DNA of 64,000 nt from Raillietiella orientalis (Eukaryota): NCBI GenBank assembly GCA_036172245.1, contig JAYWIR010000002.1, forward strand, positions 1,922,001-1,986,000. Direction: 5' to 3'. The translations under genes and the position numbers were made by a program. The notes under the pieces were generated by a model. It saw only the letters and a program-made list of their open reading frames with translations. It was not told the origin of the DNA and searched no databases. Shown piece after piece: positions 21,010 through 27,843 of the stretch (position 1 is the stretch's first letter; every line of letters starts with the position of its first letter).

Positions 21010-27843
<6,834 letters not shown>

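Follow-up and report, generated by a model that had tools for sequence, protein, structure and literature searches.

The calcineurin A gene of the pentastomid Raillietiella orientalis probably contains an alternatively spliced microexon of 21 nt. We regard it as the second of a pair, made up of a 9-nt acidic and a 21-nt hydrophobic exon, and as the pentastomid counterpart of an old arthropod exon. Judged from the genomic sequence, we have high confidence that the 21-nt exon is included in mRNA.

The gene lies in a stretch of 64,000 nucleotides that was analyzed as a whole and that we call the window. In the gene model, the constitutive frame is open over 497 aa and stays open, at 507 aa, when both microexons are included. 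A search of the contigs of the genome assembly found this as the sole calcineurin A locus; the remaining matches to calcineurin A, in pieces that are 33-67% identical, we read from their sequence as other PPP phosphatases. Among the 93 longer proteins compared, the nearest match to the spliced calcineurin A was from Daphnia (87%). COX1 encoded on contig C282 had its three best matches in Armillifer and Linguatula, at 72-73%, a slight lead over the 68-71% of insects. In a tree of 20 rows, the other named ones being insects only, it grouped with these two genera at 100/100 support, on a long branch. By these comparisons the genome is in any case that of an arthropod and probably that of a pentastomid crustacean. 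The listing of open reading frames across the 64-kb window contained no neighboring gene relevant to the microexons. The calcineurin gene forms an AT-rich island, with 33-35% GC at 22-26 kb, where the window is mostly 52-70% GC (20001-26000 compared with the rest). The last exon (21247-21010) has no intron at the site of vertebrate exon 13 and does not contain its insert.

The introns of the gene measure 3188, 857, 45, 57, 70, 55, 255, 44, 114, 601, and 54 nt. The 601-nt intron that hosts both microexons had been described as much longer than its neighbors. This holds for the direct neighbors of 114 and 54 nt, but within the gene it is the third longest of 11, exceeded by the introns of 3188 and 857 nt. 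The exon 3' of this intron matches the calmodulin (CaM)-binding peptide of PDB 2r28/2jzi. Both this match and the presence of homologous inserts across arthropods support the original prediction of a cassette microexon adjoining the calmodulin-binding site.

Coordinates of the calcineurin A gene, its two candidate microexons, and the associated signals in the window
Feature	Position	Strand	Basis
Calcineurin A coding region, 12 constitutive exons	21010..27843	-	Gene model
81-nt constitutive exon before the host intron, with the last part of the CnB-binding helix and the acidic linker	21988..22068	-	Gene model
Host intron, 601 nt, between the CnB-binding-helix exon and the CaM-binding-helix exon	21387..21987	-	Gene model
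9-nt cassette microexon, phase 1-1, predicted to encode DED	21872..21880	-	Gene model, motif scan; Penaeus counterpart GED
AG-free pyrimidine-rich acceptor region, 94-nt AG exclusion zone	21736..21831	-	Motif scan
21-nt cassette microexon, phase 1-1, predicted to encode VARLLIE	21715..21735	-	Gene model; peptide similarity to arthropod inserts
GTAAGT donor of the 21-nt exon	21709..21714	-	Gene model
TGCATG, 39 nt 3' of the 21-nt exon	21671..21676	-	Motif scan; another copy begins at 21439
85-nt constitutive exon after the host intron, with the calmodulin-binding helix	21302..21386	-	Gene model and CaM-peptide match

The gene model confirmed the 21-nt, phase 1-1, stop-free exon with its GTAAGT donor. 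Its acceptor is TAG, the reading frame is kept, and the first codon of VARLLIE is completed by bases of the upstream exon. The pyrimidine tract and the three TGC motifs predicted before the AG at 21735 were also found: the region is free of AG over 94 nt and pyrimidine-rich, with TGC at -41, -30, and -22, each of them within a YGCY word. A fourth TGC lies at -83, TCTC occurs at -79, -73, -48, and -27, and branch-point-like CTGAT is found at -67 and -34; the motif scan of this upstream region found no CTAAY branch point. The TGCATG downstream of the exon is presumably an RBFOX-type motif.

The splice signals of the 9-nt partner are a CAG acceptor with a TGC at -10 and CTAAY at -54 and -38, together with a poly-T tract and a GTAAGT donor. 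This exon is separated from the 21-nt exon by 136 nt. Steric mutual exclusion of the two exons was considered and rejected because this gap is larger than the short introns of 44-57 nt in the same gene. Mutual exclusion is also contradicted by isoforms of Venturia and Sipha that hold an acidic and a hydrophobic insert together. Three metagenome contigs (L063, L066, and L072) encode a seemingly non-arthropod calcineurin A with acidic linker inserts containing DED, and L063 and L066 each contain 9 nt that agree with the 9-nt exon of the window at 7/9 bases. On these sequences, the acidic microexon may be older than the arthropods.

Inserts at the same junction in other arthropods

RefSeq annotates equivalent inserts in many other arthropods. 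Optional hydrophobic inserts occur in isoforms from insects, cladocerans, decapods, barnacles, and ticks, and the VARLLIE exon shares with them the phase-1 junction between the exons for the CnB-binding and CaM-binding helices. Pairs of isoforms with and without an insert here were found in Daphnia, Penaeus, Procambarus, Cherax, Belonocnema, Zootermopsis, Periplaneta, Sipha, and hemichordates. The inserts from such pairs include GGKLELT in Daphnia, a sequence beginning GKLFIQK in Periplaneta and Zootermopsis, VAAKVVVQKKN in Belonocnema, and AVLIVP and longer forms in decapods. Further inserts were AKLIIKQKN in Rhodnius, AKQPKIVIKKP and its kin in beetles, AAYLLSL in ticks, and those of barnacles. 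The Daphnia and Dermacentor inserts are 7 aa long, as is VARLLIE.

The closest known likeness to the 21-nt exon is a set of RefSeq isoforms with an optional insert at the same junction: Rhodnius prolixus X2/X3, Periplaneta americana X1, Belonocnema kinseyi X1-X3, Daphnia magna X1/X2, Penaeus japonicus X1-X6, and the Dermacentor X1/X2 insert isoforms. As in the pentastomid, these inserts are short, frame-preserving, and hydrophobic with a basic residue, and they are often accompanied by a tiny acidic insert (GED, AD, or D). They differ in that the arthropod sequences have diverged (best 6-residue scores of 2-17), range from 6 to 17 aa in length, and are known as database models. In Venturia and Sipha the acidic mini-insert, D or AD, precedes the hydrophobic one. 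The eight RefSeq isoforms of Penaeus japonicus comprise four with the hydrophobic insert, two with GED, two with neither, and none with both; two Logan-derived sequences (P0314 and P0315) contain one of the two insert types each.

We compared VARLLIE with 13 of these arthropod inserts using BLOSUM62. When its residues were permuted, 15 of the 2520 arrangements reached its score; among the 3483 7-mers encoded by introns of the gene, 3 did so, VARLLIE itself included. The 13 inserts share ancestry and are not independent, and several were cut out using the skipped form of another species. Similarity is low to the Daphnia, Photinus, and syrphid-like inserts (scores of 4, 4, and 2, respectively). 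At the level of sequence, VARLLIE resembles the arthropod inserts beyond chance. Because of this, and because Penaeus has both kinds of insert, the 21-nt exon is very probably real and old.

In a metagenome scan, the 80 loci were mostly intronless across the linker. Between two Daphnia-like JGI contigs that have no intron here, L033 and L017, the difference is an insert of 21 nt in phase 1-1 and a further 9 nt, the latter fitting an alternative acceptor. The few genomic metagenome pieces that span the linker were short or without a clear microexon, and one mite-like locus with a long intron at this place (L087) yielded no comparable candidate in the scan. No named pentastomid or branchiuran calcineurin was among the 120 matches listed, of which 43 have no source name. 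A search of mainly open-access literature found no paper on an arthropod calcineurin linker insert, and the ten best matches listed contained nothing on pentastomid calcineurin. The exon lists for other arthropods in the 2019 study that defined the eMIC domain may already contain this exon.

With arthropod inserts in RefSeq and a vertebrate exon published, the kind of exon is already known, and a feature such as the 21-nt exon is to be expected at this known hot spot. If the exon is real, it extends the optional hinge insert to a pentastomid, on a crustacean branch that is distant from the insects and decapods. The two types of insert in shrimp and insects, acidic and hydrophobic, would then correspond to two adjacent microexons with readable splice signals.

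Control of inclusion

The original prediction took the UGC motifs upstream of the exon to be the signature of neural microexons that depend on the eMIC domain. According to PMC8797185, fly eMIC exons tend to have a long AG exclusion zone, UGC near the acceptor, a UCUC-rich tract, CUAAY, and a weak donor. The long AG exclusion zone, the UCUC-rich tract, and UGC are also features of eMIC exons in bioRxiv 2024.09.17.613571, which reports UGC for roughly three in four of the human SRRM3/4 microexons, without its being strictly required.

By this comparison the predicted signature stands in part. The 21-nt exon is like eMIC/Srrm234 microexons (PMC8797185) in being short and frame-preserving and in its 94-nt AG exclusion zone, four TCTC motifs, and upstream UGC; it is unlike them in its strong donor, the absence of CUAAY, and the distance of UGC, which lies 22-41 nt away and fits loosely. 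The 9-nt partner has CUAAY and its nearest TGC is at -10, compared with -22 for the 21-nt exon. The AG exclusion zone is to be read with the caution that long zones, of 78 and 59 nt, also precede 2 of the 5 constitutive acceptors checked. Of 4859 segments of 42 nt from introns of the calcineurin gene, 5.6% contained at least three TGC, and three TGC on their own are a weak indicator.

The genome likely encodes an Srrm234 protein with an eMIC-like exon. An exon with a cwf21 domain is located on one contig (C3) with an E value of 1.3e-7, which passes the cut-off. The best match in the genome to the Pfam model SRRM_C is a last exon 13.7 kb downstream on the same strand; at 21.2 bits it is below the Pfam cut-off of 27 and covers model positions 55-67 only. 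This exon is probably the eMIC. The 3' end of this Srrm234 gene (locus L004, C3:985822-988860, minus strand) consists of an RS-rich exon, a U-rich intron of about 560 nt, and the eMIC-like last exon, and reading past the RS-rich exon into the intron leads to an immediate stop. In Drosophila, the eMIC has an alternative-last-exon design (PMC8797185). The read-through stop followed by an eMIC-like last exon resembles this ELAV-controlled arrangement, here outside the insects.

We propose that skipping would be the default for the exon, owing to its very small size and to the distance of its branch point and pyrimidine tract from the AG. In excitable tissue, Srrm234 containing the eMIC last exon would bind the upstream UGC and promote inclusion, and the downstream TGCATG would recruit an RBFOX-type activator. 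We consider such neural, eMIC-dependent control of the 21-nt exon plausible, with about even chances of being correct.

A second possibility, which we hold to be less probable, is that the exon is real and its inclusion is controlled in muscle or more broadly by MBNL/CELF/RBFOX-type factors, like vertebrate exon 10a, with the 9-nt partner as the only neural eMIC target. The upstream TGC motifs in YGCY words and the downstream TGCATG, which we assign to factors of these types by assumption, would suit such control. Vertebrates offer a precedent: exon 10a of Ppp3cb and Ppp3cc in mouse and human is an optional exon at the same position as the 21-nt exon, and differs from it in being 27 nt long and adult skeletal muscle-specific, as found for mouse in PMC5577920. 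The same paper reports that Ppp3cc responds to CELF1 gain and Mbnl1 loss. Table S2 of PMC8797185 classes the mouse 10a exons and a fly CanA1 exon as ASE and not as eMIC-dependent, and the fly exon is not in its neural class either; in this table, the eMIC-dependent mouse calcineurin exon is Ppp3cb exon 13, at a place where the pentastomid gene has no intron. The CanA1 exon is 78 nt long and follows exons of 126 and 82 nt. These compare with the exons of 127 and 81 nt here, and we therefore place it in the same intron.

What favors eMIC over muscle-type factors is that the 94-nt AG exclusion zone, the UCUC repeats, and the short length suit the eMIC code. In addition, the fly exon, at 78 nt, is not a microexon, and the vertebrate exons are counterparts by position. 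For finding the controlling factor, the 601-nt intron would make a compact minigene.

Effect on calcineurin

In PMC7456046, the regulatory domain of calcineurin is described as unresolved in crystals and is thought to fold on the CnB-binding helix, hiding the LxVP site until it is released by Ca2+/CaM. Inclusion of the 21-nt exon would add seven residues, bearing a basic-hydrophobic patch, to the linker, which is disordered and acidic. The longer linker would in turn change the folding of the regulatory domain onto the CnB-binding helix and the ease with which Ca2+/CaM releases this domain. Whether the insert affects calcineurin activation in this way we judge to be evenly balanced.

A more specific alternative is that the insert is a built-in decoy docking motif that occupies the PxIxIT groove or LxVP pocket of calcineurin itself, in competition with substrates. 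For this we used strict patterns, P[^PG][ILVF][^PG][ILVF][^PG] for PxIxIT and L.[ILV]P for LxVP, with expressions from bioRxiv 632547. A hydrophobic-x-hydrophobic core is present in 46 of 136 distinct linkers. L.[ILV]P is matched by 11 of these 46, all from decapods, and the PxIxIT expression by one, from Onthophagus. In many inserts the second residue is K/R, and in VARLLIE the core is preceded by a hydrophobic residue. According to PMC6728138, PxIxIT binding is favored by K/R at position 2 and by a hydrophobic residue at -1. There is also a precedent among splice variants, CNAbeta1, which autoinhibits via a LAVP tail arising from alternative processing (PMC8523714). The resemblance lies in a docking-like motif placed inside calcineurin by alternative RNA processing; the CNAbeta1 tail is C-terminal and replaces the AID, whereas VARLLIE is in the linker and does not match LxVP.

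Several results weigh against a decoy. VARLLIE misses the PxIxIT pattern because A replaces P at position 1, although positions 2-6 fit, and it misses LxVP because E replaces P, a pattern that decapod inserts do match. The relaxed docking pattern was derived from the same sequences, and the insert family is divided between two different motifs. We examined the best-case beetle insert in an AlphaFold model of the Onthophagus isoform, built from 113 diverse sequences with a mean pLDDT of 89. In this model residues 378-399 are a low-confidence coil between two helices, and the insert, modeled with CnB absent, is a coil with pLDDT of about 50-60 that adds no strand to the catalytic sheet.

We thus find it unlikely that the insert is a decoy. 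It is equally doubtful that arthropods keep an ancient optional hinge exon that codes for a degenerate copy of calcineurin's substrate-docking motif, a reading under which the copy would be of LxVP in decapods and PxIxIT-like in insects, cladocerans, and the pentastomid. If the insert does act as a decoy, tissue-specific splicing would add a tethered competitor that filters substrates, with the acidic 9-nt exon adjusting the tether. Should the insert gate substrate docking, calcineurin would have a second autoinhibitory device encoded by splicing, in addition to CNAbeta1.

Tests of chance and further observations

The 601-nt intron contains 30 in-frame, stop-free AG..GT candidates, among which the 21-nt and 9-nt exons tie for the top donor score. 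We defined a combined pattern consisting of a YAG acceptor, a length of 3n up to 27 nt without a stop, a GTAAGT donor, a pyrimidine fraction of at least 0.6, no AG for 23 nt, and a TGC. This pattern has two matches in the intron. In 5000 dinucleotide shuffles, at least one match occurred 20 times and two matches never occurred; the 64-kb window has no further match on either strand. With the looser donor GTRAG, at least one match was found in 161/5000 shuffles and two in 2/5000, and the window has two more matches. The shuffle counts are optimistic because the criteria were chosen after the exons were seen. Two TGCATG copies occurred in 308/5000 shuffles, and RBFOX motifs alone are not significant. 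Since splice signals play no part in the comparison of VARLLIE with arthropod inserts, that test is independent of the shuffles. The alternative that the 21-nt segment arose by chance or is a decayed piece of intron, without meaningful inclusion in mRNA, gains something from the post hoc criteria and from a case built on genomic DNA. It is very improbable, however, given that no shuffle produced two such candidates and that VARLLIE, by an independent test, is similar to the inserts of arthropods at this junction.

A 12-nt in-frame candidate exon (23956-23945, minus strand) lies in the 857-nt intron 2, with a CAG acceptor, a nearby TGC, and a GTGAGT donor. It would add four residues directly before the GDIHG motif. 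No insert was found at this place in 178 homologous proteins or 56 loci, and the candidate is therefore likely chance or lineage-specific. Near 23904-23901 is a 4-nt AG..GTAAGT segment that would shift the frame.

Elsewhere in the genome there were 54 COX1 matches across many contigs, most of them fragments on large contigs; these fragments are many nuclear copies of mitochondrial DNA. Within the window, 57247-57930 and 59765-60268 contain fragments of open reading frames that, by motif, we take to be non-LTR retrotransposon reverse transcriptase.
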